This document shows, in pieces, positions 3,890 through 60,443 of a stretch of 64,000 bases of DNA. Source of the stretch: a virus. Made by a program: the position numbers and the translations under genes. The DNA lies in IMG/VR virus record IMGVR_UViG_3300020034_000010, positions 7,264 to 71,263 of that record. The stretch is one strand, 5' to 3'. The notes under the pieces were generated by a model. The model ran no database searches and had not been told where the DNA came from. It worked only from the letters and a program-made list of their open reading frames with translations. Within the stretch, counting starts at the first letter, position 1. The number at the start of each line of letters is the position of its first letter.

Positions 3890-4131
3890 TAGAGGGAGTG
3901 GTTTGCCTGTCCGAAATTACGCAGACTGTCGCGTACATCGCCGGCGCCGGGCACGCGTAGCTCGACCTCATCGAGTCCGCCAAGCTCCCTGATTGCAGCC
4001 TCGGCAACGAGGAAAACGTCGTCGTCGTCGCCAGTCATGGCATCGCGAAGCTCCTCGGCCTGTTCTGCGGGTACGGAGACCTCGACACTGAACGTGGCCA
4101 TCCCACCCCGAATCGTTACATCACTCATCAC
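3889..4131 (-). CDS. Small acidic hypothetical protein
   Basis: ORF coupled to both neighbours. Confidence 0.6.
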   Translation of the reverse strand: MMSDVTIRGGMATFSVEVSVPAEQAEELRDAMTGDDDDVFLVAEAAIRELGGLDEVELRVPGAGDVRDSLRNFGQANHSL

Positions 4132-5203
4132 ACAGCTCCTTTGCTCGTTGAATGCCGGCGTCGGTCAGTACGCGACCTTGCCCGATCTGTACATACCCCT
4201 TCTCGATGAGATAGGGCTCGACTCGTAGAGCGATCGCCTTTGAGTCGCGGCTCTTTCCGATACCCGTGGCGATGGTGTTGACGCTCGCGCGGTAGCTGAC
4301 GCCGCCGCTCTGCGTCTCCCGCCTGCTCTTGGTGTAGAGGAAGATCAACATGTTCTGCATGTCGAGCGTAAGCCCATCGTCGGTGACGCCGTTCAGCTCG
4401 TGGAGGACCTCGCGCGCGGTGTCGGCGTCAACAACGTCGTCGCAGAGCATCCCAGCGTTCTTCACGTAGTTGTTCACCTGCCGCGGCACACCACGAGCGG
4501 CGCCGGCGAACAGCTCGGCCGCGGTCGGGACGACGACGAGCCCCAGCTTGTCACCGTTCCAGCGCGCCATGCCGGCCAACGCCGCCTCATCGTAGGGCTC
4601 AAGCCTCGGGCGAAGCGGGAAGCGCGCCAAGAACGGATCAGGCAACAGCCCCTCATCCGTGGTGGTGCCGATGATCGTGATGTCCGGGAAGTCGAGCAAG
4701 CCGTTGCCAGCCGGCATCACCCGGTCCTCCATGATCGCGTAGAGAACCTCGGGTTGAGTCGAGCCGCTGATCCCGCGGCGTTCCATGACGCCCTGCTGGT
4801 GGATCTCCTCAATTCGGAGAATGTCACCGTCTCTCATTACCTGCCGCAGTTCAAGCAGTGTGTCGCGCGAGACGGGCGCCTCGACCTCGAATACCTCGGC
4901 ATCGAGTTCATGGGCGATGACGTGAGAGAACGTACTCTTGCCGGTGCCGGCAGACCCGACCAGGAGCACGTGGTCTAGCGACCGGTGACGCCGCTTGCAG
5001 GTCTCGACTACGCGGGTCATCATCGCGACCGCTTTCTCCTGCCCGATGACCTCAGCGAAGGTTTCCGGGCGCAGCACATTCTTAGAGCGCTCATCGGTTG
5101 AGACGGCGCGCGGTGCGTCGATCAGCGCCTCGCCTCCACCGTGAGTAGAGGCAAGCTCGGCTATCTCGGCGCGTAGGTTGGCGTTGGTACTGAGCGTGCT
5201 CAT
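4121..5203 (-). CDS. ruvB: RuvB-like Holliday junction branch-migration AAA+ ATPase
   Basis: LRPETFAEVIGQ N-terminus, Walker A GSAGTGKS, Walker B-like LRIEEIH, IGTTT sensor 1, ARF arginine finger, RGVPR sensor 2, EPYLI..GY C-terminal winged helix. Confidence 0.88.
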   Translation of the reverse strand: MSTLSTNANLRAEIAELASTHGGGEALIDAPRAVSTDERSKNVLRPETFAEVIGQEKAVAMMTRVVETCKRRHRSLDHVLLVGSAGTGKSTFSHVIAHELDAEVFEVEAPVSRDTLLELRQVMRDGDILRIEEIHQQGVMERRGISGSTQPEVLYAIMEDRVMPAGNGLLDFPDITIIGTTTDEGLLPDPFLARFPLRPRLEPYDEAALAGMARWNGDKLGLVVVPTAAELFAGAARGVPRQVNNYVKNAGMLCDDVVDADTAREVLHELNGVTDDGLTLDMQNMLIFLYTKSRRETQSGGVSYRASVNTIATGIGKSRDSKAIALRVEPYLIEKGYVQIGQGRVLTDAGIQRAKELCDE

Positions 5204-5872: not shown

Positions 5873-7089
5873 TACTTGTCGCTCCGAAGGCGAACCTTTG
5901 TGTCACAGTCATAGTAGGCGTGTGTGCCCTCATCGTCTTCGACCTCTACCGATCCTTGGACCGGTCCGTAGCCGACGCAGGTGAAGAATCTCCCGCTTCG
6001 ATCTTCGAATTCGCGACCGTGCTCGATTCGGTCGAGCCTCATTACGTCGTCGTGGAAGTTGCCGTCTGCGTCCCCGGTGAACTCCTCGATCTTGACTTCA
6101 CCGAAGGGCTCGGGCTCGGGGTCGCCAGCCATGCCATTGGGCGAAGAGGGTGTGTCTTCGCTACGTGGAGCGTAGGACTGTGTGTCTTCTAGTTTCTGCT
6201 TCGCGACTTCGAGATTCCCAAACCGCCAGCCCTCTGGGTCATCGTTTTCTTTGGCCTCCCTAATGGCACCGTCAATCCACGCGAGAGTTGCGCTGCGTCC
6301 GTGGGAACGCAGGTGGGCGGCGGCGTCAGAGAGTCCATTCTCTTCGAACTCATCGGCAAGTGAACCGTAGGTCGGGATGCCCATCTGCTCGGCAACCCAA
6401 TCGGCCGCGGGTCCGCCGAACTGGTCCCAGAGACGGTCGGCGTCGATCTTGGTGAGGTCGAAGTCTGACGGTATGTGCTCGCGATTCACGAGCACATCCA
6501 GTAGGACGTTCAGGAAGCACCGGTCGGTGTGTCCGTCGAGCGGCGTCCGCGGATCGATCTTGTTGCCGCAGTTCGGGCATTCGACGGGCTCGCGATGTTC
6601 CTCGCCGGCCTCCAGGAGCGCGGCGTAGAACTGCTGCTTGTATCCGCCGGCGCCCTCGATGCCTTGCTCGATCTCGAACGCGAAGGCAAGGAAGCGGTCA
6701 CGCAGGTCCACGTCTTCCTCGCCCGGGTCAATCAGCTCGGAGCCGGGGATATTCTCGGTGCCGGCGACGGCAAGCCATCCGCCGGAGCGGCCGGCCTGAT
6801 AGATCGTCTCGAAACCGTGATCCTTCGCGAGCTGCTCGGCCCAGTGCCAGAAGTCGTGTTGCACCTGCTCGTAGATACGCTGCGTCTCAGCGTCTCCGAT
6901 CTTCTTGGCCGCAGCTTGTGACGCAAGCGGGTACTGATGGATCGTGTCGTGATCCTTTACGTCAATCGCGAGAAGTCCATCCTTCTCATTGATAATGACG
7001 CCAAGGGAGCGATCATCCCAGCGGACGCGGAGATCGTGTCCCTGAAAGTAAGCGTTTGCGGAAGTGCCGAAGGTGTACTGCGTGTCCAT
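5872..7089 (-). CDS. Multi-domain acidic hypothetical protein
   Basis: 405 aa; GRSGGWL motif; CPNCG zinc knuckle; GAGG RBS before the ATG. Confidence 0.75.
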   Translation of the reverse strand: MDTQYTFGTSANAYFQGHDLRVRWDDRSLGVIINEKDGLLAIDVKDHDTIHQYPLASQAAAKKIGDAETQRIYEQVQHDFWHWAEQLAKDHGFETIYQAGRSGGWLAVAGTENIPGSELIDPGEEDVDLRDRFLAFAFEIEQGIEGAGGYKQQFYAALLEAGEEHREPVECPNCGNKIDPRTPLDGHTDRCFLNVLLDVLVNREHIPSDFDLTKIDADRLWDQFGGPAADWVAEQMGIPTYGSLADEFEENGLSDAAAHLRSHGRSATLAWIDGAIREAKENDDPEGWRFGNLEVAKQKLEDTQSYAPRSEDTPSSPNGMAGDPEPEPFGEVKIEEFTGDADGNFHDDVMRLDRIEHGREFEDRSGRFFTCVGYGPVQGSVEVEDDEGTHAYYDCDTKVRLRSDK

Positions 7090-7102
7090 GATTTACCTCT
7101 GC

Positions 7103-7148
7103 GGTCTCGTTTGTCCTGCGTTCAGAGGATATACCGCGACCGGGGAAC
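7103..7148 (-). promoter_or_regulatory. Conserved upstream element, copy A (GTTCCCC-N5-CGGT...TATCC...CAAACGAGAC)
   Basis: Near-duplicate at 7782-7820; both precede leftward ORFs. Confidence 0.55.
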
Positions 7149-7169
7149 TGTAGCGCAAGGTGGCCGGTT

Positions 7170-7577
7170 TTAGTCGGCGGGCCAGAAACGCGCTGCAAGC
7201 TCGGAATATCCCAGCTCGGGGAATGAACGCATCAGGCCAGCTCGTGCCTGTTCAGCGTCACAGCCGGTCTGTTCGATGACCAGCTCCGCGGTGAGGAAGT
7301 CGGTGTCCGCTTGGCGAATGCGTAGGATCGCCGCGTCTATCTCCCGTTCAGCGGAGATCAGATCGCGCGCTAGTTCAGCTCTCAGAGCCTCGTGAAGACT
7401 CATCGCCGGCGACCGCCCAAGCGTGTTCGATTCGCCATGGAATTGCAGCGCTATAAGGATCGTGTCCATGTCGCCGGGAGATATCGTCCAATTCTCCCCG
7501 GCCGCTCTACCATGCGAATCTCGCGTGATTCTGCGCATCTGCGGTTCAGCGGCATTTGTGGGCTCTGAAACCGCCAT
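7170..7577 (-). CDS. Hypothetical protein
   Basis: 135-aa ORF. Confidence 0.5.
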   Translation of the reverse strand: MAVSEPTNAAEPQMRRITRDSHGRAAGENWTISPGDMDTILIALQFHGESNTLGRSPAMSLHEALRAELARDLISAEREIDAAILRIRQADTDFLTAELVIEQTGCDAEQARAGLMRSFPELGYSELAARFWPAD

Positions 7578-25828: not shown

Positions 25829-25892
25829 CGGTGTTCCCCTCCGTCGGTGTTAGATGCAACAATGCGTTTTTCCGCAAACTGGAAGGAGTTCG

Positions 25893-26240
25893 ATGAACGC
25901 ACTGGATGAGGCACGCGGGTTGGTACAGAACCGACTTGCAGACCTCAACGATGAGAAGGCTCGCTTGGAGCGGGCCTTGAAGGAGCTGGACGGCGGCGTG
26001 AAACGTGGGCGTCCCCGCAAAGCTGCTTCAAGCACAGGCAAATCGCGGCGGAAACGCCGTGGCGGGACGCGGGCGAACGAGGCGGTCAAACTGATCGCCA
26101 AGCACCCCGGCATCACCGCGTCCGAGATCGCGAAGGCGATGAAGATCAAGCCCAACTACCTGTACCGGGTCCTCGCGGATCTGGAGAAGCAGAAGTTGGT
26201 CAAGAAGGACGGACGGAAGTACACCGCCGTCAAGAAGTAG
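25893..26240 (+). CDS. Nucleoid-associated-like DNA-binding protein (coiled coil, AT-hook, winged HTH)
   Basis: AAGGAG RBS; RGRPRK; HPGITASEIAKAMKIKPNYLYRVL; has its own terminator. Confidence 0.8.
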   Translation: MNALDEARGLVQNRLADLNDEKARLERALKELDGGVKRGRPRKAASSTGKSRRKRRGGTRANEAVKLIAKHPGITASEIAKAMKIKPNYLYRVLADLEKQKLVKKDGRKYTAVKK

Positions 26241-26250
26241 CGGTGGCGGT

Positions 26251-26302
26251 GTACCGGGCGCCCTGGTGAAGACGGCCAGGGCGCCCGTACGTTTCTCTTT
26301 TC
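26251..26302 (+). terminator. Rho-independent terminator
   Basis: CGGGCGCCCTGG/CCAGGGCGCCCG stem followed by a T-rich tract. Confidence 0.75.
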
Positions 26303-41695: not shown

Positions 41696-42713
41696 TGCTG
41701 ACCCCCGAGGGGCAGAAACAGCTCGCGCGCCTAATCGCCGAATGGGTCCGGGGCGGAGCGATCGTCGTGGGCAATGGAACTGAGTCCGCCGAGGCACCGA
41801 TCGAGAGCATCGAGGTCGTCCAGGTCGAGGGTGATGGCGTCAGCTATGGCGTTCAGGTCGAAGCGACCTTCGGCGCGACCGCCGCCAACTTCGAGTGGGC
41901 GCGTAACGGGGTCAAGCTCGCCGACGGCACCGAAATCGATGCCGACCAGAAGGACGGAGGCCGCAAGGTCGCCGGCGCCGCTTGGAAGTTGGCGGTTCTG
42001 GTCAAGGTGGCCTAGTGGCTGTCGAAGTCAACATCGACTCGGTTGAAACTGAGGACTCGGTTCCCGCGTCGGCCCCATTCAGAATCAGTGACAAGCCTGG
42101 GAAATCGAAACTGACCTACAGCTTCACGGTGACGGCCGATGGTGTGATCAGGGCTTGGCGCAGCCGCTTCCAGCCGACCGATCGCAACCACGGCAGACTC
42201 CTCGCCAGCCGAGGGATGGTGTGTGGATCGGGGGATCGCTGCGGGTCTCCGGTCGCTCGATCCTTGGTGGCAACTTCTCCTCTCCCAAATAGCGAGGAAA
42301 TCAACGAGGCCGATATCCATGGCTTCTCGGACGGGGATTACCCTGTCGAGGTCTTTGCAATGGAAGAAGGCGCCTGGAACTAAATGCCGTGGGAAGAAGA
42401 GACATGGATTGATGACGATGGAACCCTGACGGTCGGTACGCCTTTTGATGCCGACCGGATGAACAACATCGAAGTCGGCATTCGTGAAGCTCTGGAAGGA
42501 ACCGGCGGCGGCGGCTCCGATGTGAACCTAGTGTTCACCCAGGGAGTTGCCGCAGAAGTATGGGTCATCAAACACGAACTAGGCAAGATTCCATCTGTGA
42601 TCACCTTCGACAGCGAAGATAATGAGATAGAGGGTCAAGTAGTGCCTCTGTCCAATGACGAAATCGAAATCCGCTTCAACGCTGAGGTTTCGGGGAAGGC
42701 AGTACTGAACTAA
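41695..42713 (+). CDS. Three small virion-associated proteins (41695-42015, 42015-42383, 42384-42713)
   Basis: Beta-rich; the third has DADRMNNIE.GI and a WVIKHELG..PSV domain typical of fibre proteins. Confidence 0.6.
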
Positions 42714-43915
42714 TGGCCGTTAAAGACATCCTCACTCATTTCGATTTCAAGAAGTCCAACGAGCTTCGCAACGCGCTGGTCCACAAGCTCGCCGCCGCAC
42801 CGTCGGAACCTGTCGAGGGACAGATTTATTACGACACCGTTCTTCACAAGTTCTTCTACTACAACGGCACCGAATTCGTAGCGAGCGATCTCTCCGCCCT
42901 CGAAGCCGGTGACGCGCTCACCAAGACCGGCAACAAACTCGATGTCGCCCCTGGAACCAACCTGGAGATCAGCTCCGACACGATCCGCATTGCCGCGACC
43001 GCGGCCGGCTCCGGGCTCGGAGGGGGCGCGGCCGAAGCCCTGAAAGTCAACGTCGGCACCGGCATCGAGATCAGCTCTGATGCAGTTCGTATCGCGGCGA
43101 CAGCGGCGGGCGCCGGCATCGGGGGAGGCGGCGGCTCAGCACTGTCGATCGCTGCCGGGACCGGGATCACGATCGAAACCGACGGGGTGGCTGTTGACAC
43201 CACGGTCATTGCGACCAGGGAATTCGCAGAAGCCCTGATCAACGGGACCGACAACAAGGCGTCGGTGCGCGCGGCGACCACGGCCAATATCACGATCGCT
43301 ACTGCCCTGAACAATGCTGACGTGCTGGACGGGGTGACCCTGGCCACCGGCGATCGGGTCCTGGTCAAGAACCAGACCACCAAAAAAGAAAACGGGATCT
43401 ACATCGTCGGTGCTTCCCCAGCCCGGGCCACTGACGCCGATATCAGCGCTGAGGTTACGTCTGGTCTCTACGTCTTCGTTTCGGAGGGGACGGTCAACGC
43501 GAGCAGCGGCTGGCAGCTCTTTACCAAAGACCCGATCACCCTTGGCACTACCGAACTCGTCTTCGAACAGGTCTCGGGAGCAGGGCAGATCACCGCTGGA
43601 GCTGGGCTCACGAAGACGGGGAACGTCCTCGATGTTGGTGAAGGCGCGGGCATCAAAGTCGAAGCCGACAAAATCGTGCTGGACACCGCGGTCGCTGTCA
43701 GGAAGTTCGCAGGGCTGATCGGCACCGGTGCCGCAACCGAAATCGAAGTCGAACACAAACTCGGGACCGAAGACGTGACGGTTCAGGTCTGGCAGGCCGG
43801 CGGCGAAAAGCTCCAAGTGGACTGTGGCGTACAGAAAATCTCCACCGAAAAAATCAAACTGCTGTTCAACGTTGCCCCGACCTCAAACCAGTACCGGGTC
43901 GTCGTTCACGGCTAA
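42713..43915 (+). CDS. Fibre/decoration protein
   Basis: AG.G[IL] beta repeats; VRAATT...DGVTL..GDRVLVKNQT...NGIY. Confidence 0.75.
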   Translation: MAVKDILTHFDFKKSNELRNALVHKLAAAPSEPVEGQIYYDTVLHKFFYYNGTEFVASDLSALEAGDALTKTGNKLDVAPGTNLEISSDTIRIAATAAGSGLGGGAAEALKVNVGTGIEISSDAVRIAATAAGAGIGGGGGSALSIAAGTGITIETDGVAVDTTVIATREFAEALINGTDNKASVRAATTANITIATALNNADVLDGVTLATGDRVLVKNQTTKKENGIYIVGASPARATDADISAEVTSGLYVFVSEGTVNASSGWQLFTKDPITLGTTELVFEQVSGAGQITAGAGLTKTGNVLDVGEGAGIKVEADKIVLDTAVAVRKFAGLIGTGAATEIEVEHKLGTEDVTVQVWQAGGEKLQVDCGVQKISTEKIKLLFNVAPTSNQYRVVVHG

Positions 43916-47934: not shown

Positions 47935-48870
47935 ATGGATAACGGAATTTTCAAAGTTCTGGCCCGAATCCAGGGCGAGGAGGACGCGGCGGCAAAAGCG
48001 GACCTGATGGAGCAGAGCAATCAGCTTCTGGGCGAGCACTTCAAACGCAACCCGTTCGACCTTCAGGAGCTGGCCTACGACATCGTGGGGCTCCTCTGGC
48101 AGGACGTGATGAAAGAAGACATCACGTCGAAAATCATCGAGGTCAAGAACATCGGCCTCGGCGAGATCGATTACGTCGAAGAGGACCTCCGCGGGGGCCG
48201 TGCCTACTGGCAGGGCAAAGGCGGTCAGATCCTCAGCTCGATCATCCGCCAGGAGCGCAGCTTCATGCCCCGCGAGGAGATGGTTGCGGCGATCGACCTC
48301 CACCAGGACGAGATCACCACCAACTTCTGGGGCACGTTCGAGAAGCTCCGGGCTCAGTACGAAGAGAAGCTGCGTCAGCTCCCGCCGACCCAGCTCGTCG
48401 AGCTGATCAAAGCCGCCATCACCGGCGGGTCCTTCTTCGGCGAATTCGCCGTCTCGTCGCTGACCGCGGCGCAGATCGATTCCGTCGTCGATCCGGTGGC
48501 CGCTCGCTCCAAGGGGGGTGTCACGATCATCGGTACGGAAATCGCGACCCGCCTCCTGGCGCCGATCGGACTCCAGTTCGGCCCGAACCTCCAGGAACAG
48601 ATTTTCAACACCGGTCAGATCGGGGTCTACAAAGGCCGCGCGGTCGTCCAGGTCGAGAACTTCGAAGACTTCAACGGGCGGTTCGTGCTCCCGAACGACG
48701 AGTTGTGGATCGTCGGGAACAACGCCGGCCGTCTGACCTACTACGGAGATCAGAAGACCCAGATCCTCCCGCGCGAGGCTTTCTACCAGCGCTGGGAATC
48801 GGCCCGGGACGCCGGCATGCTCCTCTACGGAGCGGCCAAAGGCCGGATCGGTCGGATCAGCTTCAAATAG
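47935..48870 (+). CDS. Major capsid protein
   Basis: 311 aa; position; G.IG.YKG..VV A-domain-like motif; strongly biased codons; followed by a hairpin. Confidence 0.75.
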   Translation: MDNGIFKVLARIQGEEDAAAKADLMEQSNQLLGEHFKRNPFDLQELAYDIVGLLWQDVMKEDITSKIIEVKNIGLGEIDYVEEDLRGGRAYWQGKGGQILSSIIRQERSFMPREEMVAAIDLHQDEITTNFWGTFEKLRAQYEEKLRQLPPTQLVELIKAAITGGSFFGEFAVSSLTAAQIDSVVDPVAARSKGGVTIIGTEIATRLLAPIGLQFGPNLQEQIFNTGQIGVYKGRAVVQVENFEDFNGRFVLPNDELWIVGNNAGRLTYYGDQKTQILPREAFYQRWESARDAGMLLYGAAKGRIGRISFK

Positions 48871-49545: not shown

Positions 49546-50097
49546 ATGGAACCGGTCACCGATCTCCTTCAGCAGCATCTGGAGACGCGCTTCTGGCCCT
49601 TCGTTGAGCCGGAAGATGTCGAGGATACCTGCTGGCTGTGGACGGGGCGGCTGACCAGCAAGGGCTACTCGGCCGTTCGTCTGTTCGGCGGCGCGGTGCT
49701 CGGCCATATCGTCTCCTATGAGATCCTCAACGGGCCGGTGCCCGACGGGCTCGTGCTCGATCATCTCTGCCGGCAGCGAGCCTGCGTAAATCCTCTCCAC
49801 CTGGAGGCAGTCACTGCGGAGGAGAACACCCGCCGCGGCCACGAAGCGAAGACGGCGTGCGCTCACGGTCACGCTTTCGACTTCCGGCGGGGAGATGGCG
49901 CCCGCGGGTGCCGCGCCTGCGCCCGGGATCGGTGCAAGGCGTATCGAGCCCGGCACCACGTTCCCCTACTTGCCCGTCCCTGCCTGGAGTGCGGTGACAG
50001 CTTCACCCCGCGGTCCCGGCCGGACGCCTTCCTGTGCTCAGGCAAGTGTCGTCAGCGCCGCCGGCGCCGCCGGTTGAGAGAGGAGACTCTCGCCTGA
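49546..50097 (+). mobile_element. Free-standing HNH homing endonuclease
   Basis: CWLWTG..GY..H..SYE...DHLCRQRACVNPLHLEAVT..EN plus C-terminal zinc fingers. Confidence 0.85.
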
Positions 50098-50690: not shown

Positions 50691-51121
50691 CCGAAGATGC
50701 GACGATCACCGGTTACGCCGACGCCCAGGCCCGCCTCAGGGCCAAGACGGGGCGCGAGCTGTGCTTCTACACGCCGATCGCCGAAACCTGGCCACCGGGC
50801 ACTCCGCTAGACGTTCACGGCAAGCCGATCGATCCATCGGTCGAGCCCGAACAGTCGGGCTTCGAAGGCGCACCGATCCTCTGCAACGTCGCTTCCCGGC
50901 CGGTCCGCGGTGCTCTCAGTGCCGGCGCCACGGATTCACCGGTGGGCCTGATCGGTTCCAGCTCACTCGTGCTGATCACGGACCCGGAGTTGTATGCGAC
51001 GGTTGAAGATGCGACAGAGTGTGTCGTCTTCGGTCACAGGTACAAAATCGAGGACGCGAAACCTGATCAAATCGGCGGCGATAAAGTGCAGCGCATGTTG
51101 ATATTCGTGGAGAAGAAGTAG
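50687..51121 (+). CDS. Head closure/stopper protein (putative)
   Basis: Position; G..YKI beta pattern. Confidence 0.5.
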   Translation: MTEDATITGYADAQARLRAKTGRELCFYTPIAETWPPGTPLDVHGKPIDPSVEPEQSGFEGAPILCNVASRPVRGALSAGATDSPVGLIGSSSLVLITDPELYATVEDATECVVFGHRYKIEDAKPDQIGGDKVQRMLIFVEKK

Positions 51122-51616
51122 ATGGCTGTCACGCGCGAGGACTATGTAACACAGTCCGTAGACATCTACCTGCGACGGATCATGGAAGAAAAGGGGTACG
51201 GGGAAGACGTGATCGAACTCCTCGACTCCTTCCCGCACACTCGCTTCGATAGCGAGGAGCTGACCAAGACGTACATCGCCGAGGGCTTCGGCTTCGACGA
51301 TGGTGGCAAGCAGGCGGAGCTGGGCTCGAACCTCAAGGAACGGCTCTACACCATCGAGTTCTTCGTCATCGGTCGCACTCCCACATGGGCGGAGAATGTC
51401 GCCAGCGCTGTGAAATTCTCACTGGAGAACGATCAGACTGTCCCGCTGGTGGACATTCTCCAGCCCGACAAGCCGGTGATCGACGCTCTCGTACTTGCTT
51501 CAGTTTCCTCTGAGCACCAACCGATCTCCCAGCCCAAACCGTGGCAGGAGAACATCTGGACGGTGCATGCCCGGGTCGAAGACTGTTACGACCCACGCGC
51601 CGTCGGCGTGACCTGA
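51122..51616 (+). CDS. Tail terminator-like protein (putative)
   Basis: Position and size. Confidence 0.5.
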   Translation: MAVTREDYVTQSVDIYLRRIMEEKGYGEDVIELLDSFPHTRFDSEELTKTYIAEGFGFDDGGKQAELGSNLKERLYTIEFFVIGRTPTWAENVASAVKFSLENDQTVPLVDILQPDKPVIDALVLASVSSEHQPISQPKPWQENIWTVHARVEDCYDPRAVGVT

Positions 51617-51649
51617 GAAGTAAACGCGACCCGCGGCTTACCGGTGATC

Positions 51650-51806
51650 AAAGGGGGTGGCGCCGCTGTCCCCCTAGCCGTGCGTTGGTCGCCGGCGCAT
51701 CCTACAGGGGATTCACCCGGCGCCGCTTGAGGACCAGTCAAGAGGGCGGCGCCGGGCTCAGCCTGACGACAGCTCATGAGGGCTGCCCGACACGAATTCC
51801 CCGCGG
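51650..51806 (-). ncRNA. Candidate structured RNA 2
   Basis: 11-bp perfect stem and multibranch pairing; G-U pairs favour the minus strand; TATTCT -10 at 51809-51814. Confidence 0.4.
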
Positions 51807-51864
51807 CCAGAATACATGTAATTTCGACACCGTTTGTCGAAAACCCCGCAGTTTGCGGCATGGA

Positions 51865-52025
51865 TGCACCCGATCGACCTTCCCGCTGATCATGGCAGGC
51901 GTCCAACCGGGTGCAGAGCCGAGCATCCGCTTGTCCTCGCCCTTCTGAGACGGTGCCCCGCTGTTCTAGGGCGGTTCGGCTCCACCTGCCGAGCACGGCT
52001 GATGGGAGGACCACAGCTTCAGACT
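51865..52025 (-). ncRNA. Candidate structured RNA 1
   Basis: Two long helical domains; G-U pairs favour the minus strand; TG-n-TAGGTT -10 at 52033-52038; followed by a hairpin and TTTT. Confidence 0.45.
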
Positions 52026-52120
52026 CGGCGCCAACCTACCAAATGTTGCGGCAAAGACATCATGGTGGACACCACAATCGCCGAAATTGCGGAAAACCAG
52101 TTCCCATGCGGCTTTCAGAA

Positions 52121-52136
52121 CGTTTCACGTGGAACA
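52121..52136. promoter_or_regulatory. parS: parS-like ParB-binding palindrome
   Basis: TGTTCCACGTGAAACG (minus strand) versus the conserved chromosomal consensus TGTTNCACGTGAAACA. Confidence 0.7.
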
Positions 52137-52158
52137 TTAATTCGGTGACTCACCGTAA

Positions 52159-52231
52159 TGCCGGCGGCGGGACTCGAACCCGCGACATCCTGCTTAAAAG
52201 GCAGGCGCTCTACCAACTAAGCTACGCCGGC
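52159..52231 (-). tRNA. tRNA-Lys (anticodon UUU), CCA not encoded
   Basis: GCCGGCG acceptor stem, AGTTGGTA D-loop, CCTGC-CTTTTAA-GCAGG anticodon arm, GGTTCGAGTCC T-arm. Confidence 0.95.
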
Positions 52232-52235
52232 GGGG

Positions 52236-52337
52236 TCAGCCCGGGAAGGTGTGGGCAGTGAAGGGGGCGCCGCCGAAGTCGAGCCAGAAGTTGTGCCAGC
52301 CCAGCACGGCGATGCGGAGTTTGGTCTCGGTCGTCAT
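52236..52337 (-). CDS. 33-aa small ORF upstream of the tRNA
   Basis: MTTETKLRIAVLGWHNFWLDFGGAPFTAHTFPG; GC3-biased codons; TAGTAT 8 nt upstream. Confidence 0.45.
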   Translation of the reverse strand: MTTETKLRIAVLGWHNFWLDFGGAPFTAHTFPG

Positions 52338-52358
52338 CGACGTGGATACTATTCCCCT

Positions 52359-53060
52359 ATGGCTGAACTTGGCGCCGGGTTCGAGGATCGGGATAGCGGT
52401 TACTTCGCGACCTTGCCGACGCCGCCGGGGCTGCTGGGAGGGCTCGTCTTGCTGGAGGAGGCCATGGCCTTCGCGCGCGTGAACCCGCTGGGGGCGGAGA
52501 TCCTCTCGGGGATCGAGAGCCTGATCGGCACCGTCGATCGCCAGGTCACGAGGATCACGATCGAGACCGTCAAGGTGGCCGACGAAGCGATCAGGGACAA
52601 GATTGAGCGCACGCGGGTTCGGCCGCGGATCAGCTCATTTGGCTTCATGGTGCCGAAAAAATCGCTCTCAGAAGGCGTGCGCTCAGAGGTCCTCGGTCCC
52701 GGAGCCGTCGGCATCGGCAGTCTCGGGGAGATGGACACCGTGGTCGGCACCGACGGTCGGCCCTATTGGCGCACCCAGGAGTACGGCTCCGACCACAACG
52801 TCGGCCGGATCATCTACGGGCTCTTCCAGCCCGGTGGCGCCGCTCCGAGCCAAGAGGACTTCCGCAAGCACCCAGTCTTCCAGCCCGGGGCCGAAGGGGG
52901 CGGAGCCATGATCATCCGCCGGCCGATCCCAGCTCGACACTTCATGCGCGACGGCGCCGCGGTCGCCGAGAGCTTCAGGGCTCGCGAACTAGGGCAGCTT
53001 GAGGACCAAGCGATCGGCGAGATTCGTGTCCTACGTGCTGCTTTGCCTGCTGCCGCGTAG
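52359..53060 (+). CDS. Neck/tail-completion protein (HK97 gp10-like)
   Basis: PYW..QEYGS...PARHFMRDG; leaderless start 6 nt after TACTAT. Confidence 0.6.
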   Translation: MAELGAGFEDRDSGYFATLPTPPGLLGGLVLLEEAMAFARVNPLGAEILSGIESLIGTVDRQVTRITIETVKVADEAIRDKIERTRVRPRISSFGFMVPKKSLSEGVRSEVLGPGAVGIGSLGEMDTVVGTDGRPYWRTQEYGSDHNVGRIIYGLFQPGGAAPSQEDFRKHPVFQPGAEGGGAMIIRRPIPARHFMRDGAAVAESFRARELGQLEDQAIGEIRVLRAALPAAA

Positions 53061-54730: not shown

Positions 54731-55690
54731 ATGAACGATCAGCCCGAGACCCACACAGCAGAGATGCCCCCCGTGGCGGTTGCCGCGGAGGATGTCGCCG
54801 TTGGAGGCATGCCGCCGGCAGACGCCGCCCCGGAGCCGCCCGCGGCCGAGCCAGCCCCTGAGCCGGTCGTCGAAACGAGCCCTGCCGAAGAAGCGACCCC
54901 GAAGAGGATGCACAACTACTCGGAGTACCTCCACGTCGGCGCCGGCGCCGAGGACTGCGAGCACGGCGCTGACGGCGCCTGCGAGGACCCTCAGCACTCC
55001 CACATCTGGGTCCGCCTGCCCAACCAGTTCGAGCGGGCGAACATCTCCGAAAAGGCCGCTGCCGCCGCGGCCCGCCGGCTGCGCCTCCTGCGTGACCCGG
55101 AGTCCGACCAGCGGGTGATCCTCGACGGCGAGCTTGAACAGCTCCAGGTCGCCAACGATCGCCCGGCTCTGATCGAGCAGATCGTGGGGAAAGACTTCCT
55201 CGAAGACCACCTGGCGGCGCTGAAGGAGGTCCTGGAGGAAGACGAAGACGAGTGGGCGACGATCGACGAGGATCGCGAGCGCCTGCGGGTGCTGGAGCCC
55301 ATGCCCGAAGAGGAGCGGCCGAAAGAGGAATTCGAAGAGCTGTCGGCCCATCTCAAAGAGCACACGCGCCTGGTGAACGAGCGCCGGGATGCGATCCAGA
55401 AACCGAAGAGGGACGAGCTGGAGGCGAAGGGCACCGAGGATCTGGTGGACATCCTTCGCGAACAGCAGATCGAGGCGATCGGCACCGCGGCCCGGCGTGA
55501 AGAGTCGGCCAAATGGGAGTGGTACATCTGTTCCTTCAAGCCGAAGTCGCCGGACAAGCCCGGCTTCCCCAGCGATCGGTTCTTCTCGTCGATCGACACG
55601 TTCACTTCTGCCTCCACAGAGGAGATCGAGGCAATCTCCGAGGCAGTCACTCGGTTGGAGACGGAGGCGAGCGAAAAGCTAAAAGGCTAG
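54731..55690 (+). CDS. Tail assembly chaperone (G-like)
   Basis: AAGGAG RBS; lies between tail tube and tape measure. Confidence 0.65.
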   Translation: MNDQPETHTAEMPPVAVAAEDVAVGGMPPADAAPEPPAAEPAPEPVVETSPAEEATPKRMHNYSEYLHVGAGAEDCEHGADGACEDPQHSHIWVRLPNQFERANISEKAAAAAARRLRLLRDPESDQRVILDGELEQLQVANDRPALIEQIVGKDFLEDHLAALKEVLEEDEDEWATIDEDRERLRVLEPMPEEERPKEEFEELSAHLKEHTRLVNERRDAIQKPKRDELEAKGTEDLVDILREQQIEAIGTAARREESAKWEWYICSFKPKSPDKPGFPSDRFFSSIDTFTSASTEEIEAISEAVTRLETEASEKLKG

Positions 55691-56013
55691 TCCTCGATGA
55701 CTCATGGCTAGAAACGGTTCGACTCGCGCGGGAGATGGGAACGGCAGACTTGCTGTTCCCGCCCGGCGTGGAGCGCATAGACGAACTGCCGGCACAATTG
55801 TTCGAGGCGATCAGGGTGTCGATGATCTACCTGAGCTTCGAGGAGCTTCCCGAGGAGGACCGTCCACCCAAAAAGATTTGGGACGACAGTGCGAAACTCA
55901 AACTGCACTTCCAACAGGTGAAAGAAAAGCGTAAGCGACAGAGCGACCCCGACGCAGCGGCCCCGATCGAGGAGCCGGTGCAGAATGACCTGACGAAACA
56001 CATCACAAGATGA
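55672..56013 (+). CDS. Tail assembly chaperone frameshift extension (T-like, -1 frame)
   Basis: The -1 frame is open across C GAA AAG CTA AAA G; contains EDRPPKKIWD. Confidence 0.55.
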   Translation, partial: RKAKRLVLDDSWLETVRLAREMGTADLLFPPGVERIDELPAQLFEAIRVSMIYLSFEELPEEDRPPKKIWDDSAKLKLHFQQVKEKRKRQSDPDAAAPIEEPVQNDLTKHITR

Positions 56014-59000
56014 CACCGTTCGACTTCGGAGCCTTTGAGAGGGAAGCTGGTCAGCTTCTCGCGCAGATGCGCAAAAGCGCCGCGGTCGCAGCGGAGTATG
56101 AGTCGCAGGCCAAATCGGGTCGGCTCTCGACCAGCGAGGCGTCACGCGCTGCGGAGCCCGCCGGCGCTGCCGCTGGCGGTTCGAAGTCGGCCGAGGCAGA
56201 GATCAGGTCGCGTGGGCTGGCGACGGATCAGCTCGTGACCCGCCAGAAGGCCCTCACTTCGGCCGAGCAGGACGCCTCGCGCGCGGAGAGTCAGCTCGCC
56301 CAGAACATGGCACAGAGCCGCGGCTCCCTGCGGACCACCGGTGCCCTGACTAACGAGTTCGTGGATGAGGCGAAACGCGGTGCAGTGACGATTCGCGAGA
56401 TCGGCCAGGAGGTCAGCGGCACGATCTCCAAGTTCGGCGGCTGGATCGTCGCCGGCGGCGCCGTCTACTTCGCCTTCGACGCCCTGAGTGATGTGAAACG
56501 AGGCGCGATCGACGCGGCCTCTGGTGTGGAGCAGATGAGTCGAGTGATCAACAACCTCGACATCAGTAGTGCGACCGATGAAGTGAAAGAACTGGCGAAC
56601 GAATTCAACCTGCCGATCTCCAGTGTCACCGAAACTGCCTTCGGGATCGGCAAGGCGTACCACAACCAGGCGCAGGCTCTCCTCGCCACCAAATCGGCAC
56701 TGTACGCCGTGAAGGTTGGTGAGCTTGACGCAGGGACCGCGACCAAATACCTGATCTCGATCATCAACGGCTTCCATCTCCCGGCGTCGGCGATGGCCGG
56801 GTTGTTCGATCAGTTGCTGACCGCCCAGAAGCGTTATGCGATCGACCTCCCCTCCCTGATGGCCGGCGTCGGTCGAGCGGCTGGTTCTTTCCGAGCTGCC
56901 GGCGGCGATGTCCACACACTGATCGCGCTGATCACGACCCTTCAGCACGTCTCCGGGCAACAGGGAAATGTCATCGGCACGACGATTCAGCGGTCTCCTC
57001 ACTTCCTCGCGATGCCGCAGAACCAGTCGGTACTCAAACAGTTCGGCGTCGATCCGAACCAAGACATCGAACAGGTCTACTCAGAGGCGATCAACGCAGC
57101 TCAGGGTAAATCCGGCAACGTCCAGAGGGAGATCGCTGAAGCACTGTTCGGTCCACAAAACGCCTCCCGCGTCGGGATCTTCCTACTCCAGAACAAGAAA
57201 CTCTTCGACGAAGTTCTCAAACAAACCTCACCAAAACATGCCAAAGGCGCCGCGGAAGAACAGTTGGAAATCGTTCTCTCCAAGGCAAGCGAGAAGATTG
57301 ATCGAATCGGGCATCAGCTCGAACAGATCGGGCTCGGCCTGGCGCGCGGCCACCTGCTCGACTCGCTCGGTCTTGCTCTCCAGACGATCAACGAGCTTCT
57401 CTCCGTAGCAAACAGCCTGCTCGGGGCATTCGACTCACTCCCGGACGGGGCTCAAAAGCTCCTCGCCTACCTGATCCAGGCGTCGTTGGTCATCAAGACC
57501 CTGCGCAGGCTGAATCTCGGCGAGACGATCGCTGGGCAGCCTCAAGGGCAGGTGGGTGGAGTACGTGGCGGCGCCGCTCGCTTCTTCGGCTACGAAAGCA
57601 AAGACTCCTTCGCCAAGGAAGCGCGCGCCGGGTTCATCAACGAGCAGCAGGCGCTCCAGAAAGAACTCTCGAAAATCACGACTCGGCAGTACACGGCCGG
57701 CCGCGAGGAGACCGCGGCCTTCAAAAGGGCACGGGAGACCGATGCGGCTGTTGGGCCGGCGGTCAAACAGTACGGCGCGCTTTCACCAGAGGCAGCGGCG
57801 GCGAAAGAGAAGGCCGTCGGTGCAGCGCGGACGGCAACGGCAGCGGCTGAAGCCAGCGAAAAACTGGCGATCAAAGAAGAGGCTGCCGTTGCGCGTCTCG
57901 CTGCGATCCAAGAGAGCATCGTTGCTACCCGCAAAAAAGTCGTTGGCGGGCTCAACGCGGAGGCGACGATCGCGGAGGCCCAGCGGCTCGGCTACCCGGT
58001 GCCCGCGGGCTTCGAAAAGGACCCTCTGGCTGGCACCCGCAAACTGGGCGCCACGCAGAGAGAGGTCGAGGCGATCAACCAGGCGACCAAGGGCGTCGTC
58101 CCCGCCGGCGCCGCAGAGGAGGCGGGCAGGACCTCGGCCGTCGTCGGTGGAGCCGCGGGCAAGGTCAAGGACTTCAGCTCGAAAGTCGGGGGCGTCAAAG
58201 GTGCGGTGTCGTCTCTGGGCGGCGCCTTCAGCGGGCTCCTCGGGCGAGCGGGCGAGCTTGCCTTCGCTGCCTTCACGATCGGCTTGCTCTCGGAACTACT
58301 CACCGACCAAGCCGACAAGGTTGGTGACGAGTTCGAATCCATCAGTGCGGCATCGAAGTCTCCAAAAGCACGTCTCGACAGACTTCATCAGCTCAAAAAG
58401 GGATCACAGGCTGGTGAAGGTGGCGAAACCTTCTCCGATCGCCTCGACAACCTGATCACCGAACGGACCAAGGTCCTCGGTGTGGACGTGCCGACTCTTG
58501 GCCTCGGTCCGGGGAAGGGGATCGGGGAAGAACGAGAGGAACTCGAAGCTCAGGCTGCCCACACGATTGAAGCCGAACTGAAGGCTCAGCGCAGTGCGAA
58601 ACGAAAAGGTGAGCCGGTTCCATTCCGGTACATCTCTGACATCAGGAAAGACATTCAGCGTGTGCAGAAGTCGAACCTGGGGCGTAAGCAGACCGAAGAA
58701 GCGCTGGAAAAGTACGAAGAAGAGCTGCTGCACTCGTACGCCGGCGGGAAAGATCACAACAATGAACTTGCTGCGGCACAGGCAGAAATCCAGAAGGCTG
58801 GTGTCGAAACCGCGAAGGGTAAGGATCTGGTTGAAAAACTCCAGAACCTGAAAGCCTCGCAGATCACCGAACGGTTGTCGTCGAACGCGGCGTTGATCGG
58901 GGGGTCTGAAGGGGTCGCGTATGACCCTGCGATTGCACACAAGCTGGCGCTGATCTATGAGGCTCAGGTTCATACGCGACGTGGGGCCACCGACGCTAAA

Positions 59001-60443
59001 TCTCTCTCCGAACTCGCGTCGGCGCGGCAGACGTACTTCTCCGCGATCGAGACCGCGGTGTCGAGTGAACTCCAGTACGGCCTCGACACAGCCAAAACCC
59101 AGGGTCAGCGATCCGCTGCCTATCAGCAGGCGCTCTCCAGGTACAAACACTTCGCAGGTTCGTCAGGTGCCGATTACAAAAAGCAGAAAGAGCAGGTCGA
59201 ACAGCTCGAAAAACGCCGCCAGCAGGTGGCCGCGCAGCAGCAAGAAGAAGAAGGCAACATACACAGTCCGGGGATCGACGCGACAAAACTCCCTGGTAAT
59301 GAAGAACTGAAAAAACTTGACACTCGGCTCCAGGCTGAAAAAGGCAAACTGAAAGCCCTTGCTGACGAAGAGAACCAGAAGCAGAGGTTCGTTCGTCAGA
59401 TCATTCAAAAACTGCGCGAGGAACAGTTCCAGGCGAACAGCGCACTTCGTCAGGCCGAAGAGGGTGCGCGCGAGGCGCTGACTGCCGACCCGGTTGTGCA
59501 GACCCGAGAGAAAATTGAATTCCTCGGTAAAGAAATTGCCCAGGCGATCAAAGTCTACGGTAAGGATTCCCAGCAGGTCTTCCAGCTCATCACCGAACGG
59601 CGCCAGGCGCAGCAGACGTTGATCCAGGATCAGCTCGGGTTGATTCAGGCACACGGTCAGCTCGCGACCGCCGGCATCCTCCAGCAGGTTCCTCGTGAGA
59701 AATCGGAGCTGTACGGCCCCGGTGGGCTCCTCGCCCAGCTTCGTTTCGAGCAGGCTCACCGCAACGCCTTCGACCCAAAGCAGATCATCGAAATCGAGGC
59801 CCAAGTCAAACAGGCACAGGCCCAGCTCGAATTCGATGTGGTGCAGGAAGCCACCCAGCTTGCCGATGCGCGGTTCGGTATCAGGGAAGCGCAGGCGCAG
59901 TACAAAGGTAACGGTGCGCAGGCCGCGAAAATCGCACTGGATAAAGCGAAATACGATCTTGCACATGCACAGACGCCGCAGGAAAAACTCGCTGCGCAGC
60001 AGTCGGTGATCCAGGCCGTCGGCGCGAAGCGGGATGCCGTTGCTCAGGCCAAACTCGAATCGATCGAATTCGAAGCCAACATCGCGAAGACCACTACGCA
60101 GGACGAGATCGAACAGCTCGAAAATCTCCTCCATACCTACAAGCTCAGCATGGCGATGCGCCGGCAGATCCGTGAGCAGATCCACTCGCTGAAAGGCCAG
60201 CTCTCCAGTGAAGGTGACGCCTTCAACCTGAACGTCGGCGACTTCTCGCTGCCGACGGCATATGACATTCGCCGCGCTGTGCTATCCGGTGGTTCGGGGG
60301 GGCAGAGCCCGCAGGTCAACCAGTCCAACAGCTTCCACATCGAGAACTACTCCAGCGATCCGAACGTAGTGGGCCGCGCGATCGGCCGGGCACTCGGCGG
60401 CGCCGCCCACTCAGCCGCCCTATCAGCGGGAGTCGCGGGATGA
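56010..60443 (+). CDS. Tape measure protein
   Basis: 1477 aa, Ala/Gln-rich helical, with a TP901-like core region. Confidence 0.9.
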   Translation: MTPFDFGAFEREAGQLLAQMRKSAAVAAEYESQAKSGRLSTSEASRAAEPAGAAAGGSKSAEAEIRSRGLATDQLVTRQKALTSAEQDASRAESQLAQNMAQSRGSLRTTGALTNEFVDEAKRGAVTIREIGQEVSGTISKFGGWIVAGGAVYFAFDALSDVKRGAIDAASGVEQMSRVINNLDISSATDEVKELANEFNLPISSVTETAFGIGKAYHNQAQALLATKSALYAVKVGELDAGTATKYLISIINGFHLPASAMAGLFDQLLTAQKRYAIDLPSLMAGVGRAAGSFRAAGGDVHTLIALITTLQHVSGQQGNVIGTTIQRSPHFLAMPQNQSVLKQFGVDPNQDIEQVYSEAINAAQGKSGNVQREIAEALFGPQNASRVGIFLLQNKKLFDEVLKQTSPKHAKGAAEEQLEIVLSKASEKIDRIGHQLEQIGLGLARGHLLDSLGLALQTINELLSVANSLLGAFDSLPDGAQKLLAYLIQASLVIKTLRRLNLGETIAGQPQGQVGGVRGGAARFFGYESKDSFAKEARAGFINEQQALQKELSKITTRQYTAGREETAAFKRARETDAAVGPAVKQYGALSPEAAAAKEKAVGAARTATAAAEASEKLAIKEEAAVARLAAIQESIVATRKKVVGGLNAEATIAEAQRLGYPVPAGFEKDPLAGTRKLGATQREVEAINQATKGVVPAGAAEEAGRTSAVVGGAAGKVKDFSSKVGGVKGAVSSLGGAFSGLLGRAGELAFAAFTIGLLSELLTDQADKVGDEFESISAASKSPKARLDRLHQLKKGSQAGEGGETFSDRLDNLITERTKVLGVDVPTLGLGPGKGIGEEREELEAQAAHTIEAELKAQRSAKRKGEPVPFRYISDIRKDIQRVQKSNLGRKQTEEALEKYEEELLHSYAGGKDHNNELAAAQAEIQKAGVETAKGKDLVEKLQNLKASQITERLSSNAALIGGSEGVAYDPAIAHKLALIYEAQVHTRRGATDAKSLSELASARQTYFSAIETAVSSELQYGLDTAKTQGQRSAAYQQALSRYKHFAGSSGADYKKQKEQVEQLEKRRQQVAAQQQEEEGNIHSPGIDATKLPGNEELKKLDTRLQAEKGKLKALADEENQKQRFVRQIIQKLREEQFQANSALRQAEEGAREALTADPVVQTREKIEFLGKEIAQAIKVYGKDSQQVFQLITERRQAQQTLIQDQLGLIQAHGQLATAGILQQVPREKSELYGPGGLLAQLRFEQAHRNAFDPKQIIEIEAQVKQAQAQLEFDVVQEATQLADARFGIREAQAQYKGNGAQAAKIALDKAKYDLAHAQTPQEKLAAQQSVIQAVGAKRDAVAQAKLESIEFEANIAKTTTQDEIEQLENLLHTYKLSMAMRRQIREQIHSLKGQLSSEGDAFNLNVGDFSLPTAYDIRRAVLSGGSGGQSPQVNQSNSFHIENYSSDPNVVGRAIGRALGGAAHSAALSAGVAG

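Follow-up and report, generated by a model that had tools for sequence, protein, structure and literature searches.

The DNA studied here, referred to below as the window, comprises 64,000 nt of the 71,263-nt IMG/VR virus record IMGVR_UViG_3300020034_000010, which is classed as linear and 81% complete; the stretch is present, at least partly, in seven soil-metagenome runs, none of them listed as an RNA data set. A row of plus-strand virion genes in the window is broken by a 742-bp gap (positions 51617-52358), and this gap is the subject of our analysis. The reading that we favor, at odds only slightly better than even (a probability of about 0.55), is that the gap lies between two operons and houses a minus-strand insert composed of a microprotein gene and a tRNA-Lys(UUU) gene, that the tRNA serves late genes rich in AAA codons, and that the remainder includes a conserved DNA block that functions in cis and does not encode structured RNAs. 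In this temperate, siphovirus-like phage from soil, the gap would separate two plus-strand transcription units that are expressed late, the first containing head-completion genes and the second tail genes. The insert would be transcribed in the opposite direction, through the microprotein gene (52337 to 52236), a 4-nt spacer and the tRNA gene (52231 to 52159) into a short hairpin. A preliminary description of this DNA had viewed the gap as an antisense non-coding island with a small open reading frame (ORF), a tRNA, a parS palindrome and two structured RNAs. The gap, the tRNA, the small ORF and the palindrome are all real, and the sequence between 51898 and 52158 is conserved; the structured RNAs and their promoters were not borne out, and the small ORF is a protein gene.

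The interruption of about 740 bp is readily seen from the gene map: the plus-strand genes stop at 51616 and restart at an ATG at 52359. The last gene before the gap (51122-51616, plus strand, 164 aa) and the first gene after it (52359-53060, plus strand, 233 aa) are both part of the virion module, with a GC content at third codon positions (GC3) of 0.76 and 0.81, respectively, and their homologues in a related viral contig, L002, are 70% and 56% identical. Neither gene had a match in Pfam, in PHROG or among PDB sequences. Further away, a head-decoration match was found at 42713-43915, weak matches to major head proteins at 47935-48870, and tape-measure matches at 56010-60443. The gap is thus located, as far as position goes, between head and tail genes. 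Real genes of this phage have a GC3 of 0.72-0.86 and a GC content at second codon positions of 0.37-0.56, and the genes flanking the gap have a GC3 of 0.76-0.86. Between 51617 and 52160, the GC content is ca. 0.6 at all three codon positions with no codon-position periodicity, and every long ORF in this interval has a GC3 of only 0.59-0.63. It follows that the gap is real and mostly non-coding. Of two plus-strand ORFs in the gap that were searched, the 116-aa one had a sole match that is an artefact of reading the tRNA in antisense, and no homologue was found for the 104-aa one.

The minus-strand tRNA-Lys(UUU) gene was recovered at 52159-52231 by ARAGORN and, as RF00005, by Rfam (78.9 bits; the gathering score is 29), as had been claimed. 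It has a canonical cloverleaf with four regular stems; the anticodon loop reads CUUUUAA, the discriminator base is A, and the gene does not encode CCA. Both programs agree that no other tRNA is present in the window, and a scan of the record's first 8.5 kb found none besides it. Three nt past the 3′ end of the tRNA, a 5-bp hairpin is followed by an A/T-rich tail on the minus strand (52143-52155). Since the terminator scan near the gap returned just this site (52155-52143), with 1.4 expected in shuffled sequences, support for it as a terminator is positional only.

In the late genes (35863-63470), lysine is encoded by 197 AAA and 211 AAG codons, an AAA share of 197/408 (0.48). The corresponding share is 65/262 in the early plus-strand genes (65 AAA, 197 AAG) and 19/89 in the minus-strand genes at the left (19 AAA, 70 AAG); the enrichment in late genes over early and left-block genes is highly significant (Fisher p = 3e-12). 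Other A- or T-ending codons of two-fold pairs are rare in the same late genes, with CAA, TTT and AAT accounting for 0.09, 0.06 and 0.11 of their pairs. As an observation in its own right, roughly every second lysine codon in the late genes of the window and of L002 (68-10291 in the latter) is AAA even though their GC3 is 0.8-0.9, and a share of 0.25 is seen in early genes of the window; in a third relative (L010), AAA accounts for 12 of 37 lysine codons. The use of AAA by late genes fits a demand for tRNA-Lys(UUU) in late expression, and the phage tRNA would most likely add AAA-decoding capacity for these genes despite their strong GC3 bias.

One can also imagine that the tRNA is a countermeasure to host defence, i.e., that a resistant tRNA-Lys(UUU) replaces host tRNA-Lys cut by PARIS AriB or by anticodon nucleases of the PrrC type. 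Carriage of the Lys isotype on its own would suit such a targeted function. tRNA-Lys is the known target of PARIS, and the tRNA-Lys of phage T5 rescues infection (PMC11464382); phage tRNAs that evade anticodon nucleases have likewise been described (PMC10264068). The phage studied here shares with T5 a phage-borne tRNA-Lys isoacceptor. T5 differs in having 23 tRNAs and changes in the anticodon stem-loop of its tRNA-Lys, whereas here there is a single tRNA with a canonical CUUUUAA anticodon loop. Late genes rich in AAA provide a simpler reason for carrying the tRNA. We regard an anti-defence role as improbable.

The minus-strand ORF of 33 codons (52236-52337), located 4 nt upstream of the tRNA gene, shows the coding signature that the rest of the gap lacks: its GC content at codon positions 1, 2 and 3 is 0.53, 0.53 and 0.91 (binomial p of ca. 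5e-4 for 34 codons and a background GC of 0.65). A homology search with the ORF extended by seven in-frame upstream codons retrieved five proteins among five candidates, the window's own and four homologues of 33-51 aa with 66-78% identity; their N-termini are variable and the C-terminal block is almost invariant. An exhaustive profile search returned 12 representatives at E <= 1e-3, ten of which are 29-51 aa long and have the C-terminal block in common; the other two, longer repeat proteins, were taken as spurious. A 108-aa protein (L025) with only a short motif in common was also discarded as a relative. The microprotein matched no Pfam or PHROG family, and in the ESM Atlas it hit one unnamed cluster only, with a score of 0.75. 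The ORF that the preliminary description had listed as a component of an RNA system is thus a genuine protein gene and not part of such a system.

A full-length copy of the microprotein gene is present in L024, an IMG/VR contig of lower GC content, where it is translationally coupled to both neighbours: it begins within the stop codon of a 277-aa gene, and the gene that follows in turn begins within its stop codon. Compared with the copy in the window, it contains many synonymous differences and the residues are kept. The gene that follows in this unrelated phage contig (3092-7558) is 65 aa long, and farther downstream lies a DnaE-like polymerase ORF of 1113 aa, a context that places the family in a replication-type module there. 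No tRNA was detected within 4 kb of the L024 copy, and thus the microprotein gene and the tRNA do not form an obligate pair. The family occurs in unrelated phage contexts, next to a tRNA in the window and coupled within an operon in L024.

Next to the coding elements, the gap contains some 540 nt of heterogeneous non-coding DNA: a fast-evolving spacer, a GC-rich hairpin, a replaceable segment of 88 nt and a block of 261 nt. Closer relatives than L002 are represented by contigs from three soil runs, X3 and X4 from one study and X5 from another, which were compared at a likeness of at least 80% and whose joints are bridged with 212-255 nt on the shorter side. Upstream of the gap, the last virion gene differs from X4 at 31 positions in 495 nt and has few differences from X5 among those listed. 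The interval 51602-51809 has 20 substitutions and eight gaps in 208 nt in X4; indels at 51659-51689, within the spacer (51617-51701, no GC3 periodicity), are found in X3, X4 and X5. The segment 51810-51897, with small hairpins at 51822-51842 and 51846-51858, is replaced in all three relatives by 97 unrelated letters. The picture is different from 51898 to 52231, i.e., in the 261-nt block (51898-52158) together with the tRNA gene: X3 and X4 show 14 differences and no gaps in 334 nt, and X5 shows 12 differences and one gap in 289 nt (to 52186). The tRNA gene is kept whole in X3 and X4. The segment with the microprotein gene (52232-52358) is replaced by 22 letters in X3 and X4, which consequently lack that gene, and 52187-52402 is replaced by 147 letters in X5. 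Finally, the downstream gene has 25 differences in 539 nt in X3/X4 and 65 in 403 nt in X5. The conservation of 51898-52231 is at the level of the coding flanks and is higher than that of the spacer at the left (p = 2e-4; 3e-3 in the least favourable case, with each of the 14 differences placed outside the tRNA); in X5, it far exceeds that of the downstream gene (p = 7e-7).

The conserved block is unlikely to be a missed gene. In X5, one extra nucleotide after 52075 would shift the frame of every ORF that spans this position, which argues against a conserved ORF, and the small ORFs that can be read in the block by eye have a GC3 of 0.44-0.57. The block, whose GC content is locally lower, includes a parS-like site and the sequence TTGCGGMAAA twice. 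Its role is probably that of a cis-acting DNA element, either by protein binding or as a promoter region. An origin of the block from a host was considered and dropped: only short, chance-level matches were obtained, in 20 of 401 genomes (E 5e-4 to 0.01).

Protein-based scans of viral contigs returned L002 as the sole relative, a metagenome scan gave the same contig, and it is the only relative so recovered with retrievable DNA at the junction. Its gap measures 201 nt and is unrelated in sequence, with no tRNA found and a folding z-score of +0.89. In a distant phage, GX15bay (29% identity in a 410-aa protein), the equivalent stretch is tightly packed with genes. A scan of genomes yielded one relative, a 6.9-kb contig in a metagenome-assembled genome (MAG) labelled as a Polyangia bacterium; this contig starts at the tail gene downstream of the gap and is therefore silent on the gap itself. 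No relative of the tail gene was found in 400 further genomes of the phylum of this MAG, and the MAG has no match to the two genes that flank the gap. As a host candidate, the MAG is a hint resting on binning only.

These comparisons bear directly on the proposal that the five elements form a single module. X3 and X4 are without the small-ORF segment, X3, X4 and X5 differ from the window at 51810-51897, the left spacer is rich in indels, and neither a tRNA nor a parS site was found in L002. Since the parts occur in different combinations in relatives, they are not one co-inherited module.

The preliminary description had further proposed two segments with extensive base pairing and a -10-like hexamer for each of them. 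Folding energies were compared with those of dinucleotide shuffles. For the 504 nt from 51617 to 52120, z was -0.91 for the minus strand (17 of 100 shuffles folded as well) and -1.78 for the plus strand (5 of 100); for the 261-nt block, it was +0.26 (minus) and -1.51 (plus), i.e., not above shuffles. A sliding 90-nt analysis (56 tests) gave a best z of -2.6 and six values at or below -2. Rfam covariance models, run at the gathering threshold over the whole window and at E <= 10 over 51400-52500, identified nothing beyond the tRNA; sub-threshold rows either overlap the tRNA or are far below the cut-offs. A compact RNA control module, in which the small ORF, tRNA, parS and two structured non-coding RNAs act together, would draw on the conserved non-coding block that follows the tRNA in minus-strand direction, on two local 90-nt windows with a z near -2.5, and on the small hairpins at 51822-51858 that, read on the minus strand, are followed by T-rich runs and could end a longer tRNA-trailer transcript. 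However, z-scores for the 504 nt and for the block on the minus strand are within the shuffle range, Rfam models match only the tRNA even at E <= 10, the small-hairpin segment and the small ORF are replaced or missing in relatives, the L002 gap is unrelated and unstructured, and no promoter-like sites were found. We consider this possibility very improbable and retain the reading of the gap as an inter-operon region with a minus-strand insert and a conserved DNA block.

Within the non-coding part, the only strong hairpin (51713-51759) has perfect 11-bp arms (51716-51726 and 51746-51756) and an inner 5-bp stem, as found by the hairpin scan and by folding, and is one of few perfect hairpins of at least 11 bp in the window. 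Between 51701 and 51769 there are no X3/X4 substitutions among the differences listed, and X5 has insertions in the loop. The hairpin is probably an RNA 3′-end or stability element of the head operon. Elsewhere in the window, a GC hairpin of 12 uninterrupted base pairs that runs into a T-rich tail (26255-26287), located 15 nt past the stop codon of gene 25854-26240, is a canonical intrinsic terminator; thus, the host reads such signals.

At the other end of the gap, two divergent TAnnnT hexamers overlap at 52346-52352, the plus-strand one 6 nt before the ATG at 52359 and the minus-strand one 8 nt before the ATG at 52337. The same hexamer is found 7 nt before the corresponding ATG in L002. One could regard these hexamers as candidate -10 boxes for leaderless transcripts, though the hexamer-plus-ATG pattern is not above chance. 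The position of the microprotein/tRNA unit and its antisense orientation within the late genes fit the idea, put forward earlier, that it is expressed independently of those genes; promoter sites that would complete this picture did not emerge.

Several observations weigh against our interpretation of the gap. First, a scan for σ70-type promoters gave no sites in 51000-53000, and the orientation, promoters and ends of the minus-strand transcription unit are predictions made from sequence. Second, neither strand shows a T/U tract next to the hairpin at 51716-51756, which sets it apart from the canonical terminator at 26255-26287. Third, the late genes of L002 are equally rich in AAA (0.49; 70 AAA, 73 AAG), yet a tRNA search over 12,483 nt of this contig came back empty, although the contig is only 16.7 kb long and a tRNA may be encoded elsewhere in its genome. 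Fourth, among the differences listed for X5, its upstream gene seems closer to the window than the block is, and conservation of the block could partly come from recent recombination in mosaic phage genomes.

The parS palindrome of the preliminary description corresponds to a parS-like site of the chromosomal ParB-binding type at 52121-52136. It matches the 16-mer parS consensus at 15 of 16 positions and the 14-mer core at 13 of 14. At up to one mismatch, none of 100 shuffled sequences gave any match. At up to three mismatches, there were three matches compared with 0.65 expected, and 6 of 100 shuffles reached three; two of the three are the palindrome itself on both strands. No second site of this kind was found in the 71,263-nt record, and contigs of the relatives extend across its position. 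The expectation of one match in 71 kb by chance is ca. 0.01 by our estimate; although small, this value does not settle the matter for a motif chosen post hoc. No ParB_N domain was found in the record (81% complete) at E <= 1, L002 has no parS site within two mismatches in 12,483 nt, and an exact 24-nt pattern spanning the palindrome occurred in no viral contig. The Polyangia MAG encodes ParB and contains parS-type sites, including the exact 14-mer of the phage; eight sites were counted at up to two mismatches, compared with five in a reversed control.

If the palindrome were a working site, host ParB would load on phage or prophage DNA, and this could position or segregate phage genomes, or ParB spreading could, in a lysogen, lower the activity of the neighbouring divergent promoters and of the late genes. 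The single deviation from the 16-position consensus, with no equal among 100 shuffles, speaks for such a role; so does the location of the site inside a non-coding block with coding-like conservation and, in X3 and X4, no indels, and so does the presence of the same 14-mer and close variants in the ParB-encoding MAG that holds the sole genomic relative of the phage tail gene. On the other hand, there is a single site with no ParB or ParA-linked context in the phage record, the integrase described below makes partition of the plasmid type unnecessary, and L002 has no such site within two mismatches in 12.5 kb. Moreover, a chance expectation of ca. 0.01 is not negligible given how many known motifs might have been noticed, the link to the host depends on metagenomic binning of a 6.9-kb contig, and the pattern gave eight sites in the MAG against five in the reversed control. 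ParB binding to the palindrome is, on this evidence, unlikely. The more elaborate proposal, in which the whole 261-nt block is a cis DNA element by which an integrase-bearing phage without ParB recruits host chromosomal ParB, so that spreading at the head/tail junction silences prophage late genes or organises replicating DNA while the tRNA/microprotein unit stays expressed, appears more improbable still.

Chromosomal parS sites bound by ParB/Spo0J resemble the palindrome in being near-consensus 16-bp palindromes, and the same 14-mer is present in the candidate host MAG. Unlike them, the site in the window is a single predicted one, in a phage without ParB, and has neither an origin nor a parAB operon in its vicinity. 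Extrachromosomal prophages of mycobacteriophages reportedly carry their own parAB and are without integrases; this record has an integrase, no ParB found and no supported RNA structure. What such prophages, with parABS and RNA-based origins (PMC7157519), have in common with the present case is a partition-type site beside non-coding DNA in a temperate phage. Literature searches on host ParB and on parS in phages or prophages turned up no earlier case of a phage that has an integrase and a chromosomal-type parS but lacks ParB, which is weak evidence of absence.

Just to the left of the window, on the minus strand (6400-7452 of the record), lies the gene for a tyrosine integrase, whose PF00589 match at record positions 6466-6924 scores 92.2 bits; the phage is thus temperate. 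Among the integrases of the phage collection, none shares more than 23-29% identity with it. Given an integrase and a tRNA, one can consider tRNA-dependent lysogeny, in which a short core directs integration into the host gene for tRNA-Lys(UUU) without restoring that gene, and the phage tRNA, expressed opposite to the late genes, replaces the lost one. In such phages, attB overlaps a host tRNA gene of the same isotype, the common core is ca. 8-17 bp and the tRNA is not rebuilt; tRNA-Lys-TTT of phage Fionnbharth overlaps a gene on the opposite strand, has its own promoter and is 88% identical to the closest bacterial tRNAs (PMC10865867). The tyrosine integrase together with a phage tRNA, the fact that the sole tRNA of the window and of the record's first 8.5 kb is tRNA-Lys(UUU), and its antisense orientation to its neighbours, as in Fionnbharth (PMC10865867), are all consistent with this mode of lysogeny. 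Several actinophage clusters use exactly this isotype (PMC10865867), and the best match of the phage tRNA to a candidate-host MAG tRNA is just 82%, similar to the 88% of Fionnbharth.

Evidence for a core was not obtained, however. There is no attP-like non-coding region adjoining the integrase gene, whose flanks are packed with minus-strand genes, and a search of the record for words shared with the tRNA returned only GC-rich words of 9-12 nt that recur many times and are intragenic. The identity of the integrase to those of the collection does not exceed the 23-29% quoted above, and attB was not found; since the record is 81% complete, attP may be in its missing part. Fionnbharth, LeBron and BrutonGaster (PMC10865867) are like the present phage in being temperate, with a tyrosine integrase and a lone tRNA-Lys(UUU) opposite to its neighbours that is not close to the tRNA of the candidate host, and are unlike it in that the integrase here is only distantly related and no short-core evidence was found. 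We regard tRNA-dependent lysogeny as doubtful and prefer provision of tRNA-Lys(UUU) for late genes as the explanation of the tRNA.

In several respects, the insert resembles phage tRNA genes and inserts of the moron type in late regions: it contains a single tRNA in its own orientation, lies in a gap of the virion module, varies among relatives and is accompanied by late genes rich in the cognate codon. It differs from them in the conserved microprotein gene 4 nt upstream of the tRNA, in the conserved block with a parS-like site that follows the tRNA, and in that the codon enrichment is also seen in L002, where no tRNA was found.

Other features of the window can be mentioned briefly. An HNH endonuclease gene is present among head and head-completion genes (49546-50097, plus strand; PHROG 826, E = 8e-42; Pfam HNH_3). 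Two overlapping plus-strand ORFs (54731-55690 and 55513-56013) lie directly before the tape-measure gene, which is the usual place of tail assembly chaperones with a programmed frameshift. A RuvB-like AAA+ ATPase is encoded in the leftward gene block (4121-5203, minus strand; RuvB_N, E = 2e-24). An 11-mer, CTCGTAnATTA, occurs on the plus strand only, in five exact copies and two with one mismatch (30170, 32497, 38748, 39441, 45908, 46496 and 53089), compared with ca. 0.1 exact copies expected by our estimate. Six of the seven precede gene starts (four within 5-13 nt and one 48 nt upstream), one is intragenic and none is in the gap. The motif may be a phage-specific promoter or regulatory site.

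Taken as a whole, the gap is mostly an ordinary phage tRNA island, and an undescribed RNA system, ranked highly in the preliminary description, is thereby struck off. Two leads survive. The first is the microprotein family, which is unnamed and, with 29-51 residues, small enough for synthesis and testing. The second is the conserved non-coding block with its host-type parS-like site in a phage in which no ParB was found; if host ParB binds at 52121-52136, a temperate phage would here exploit the segregation machinery of its host in a novel manner.

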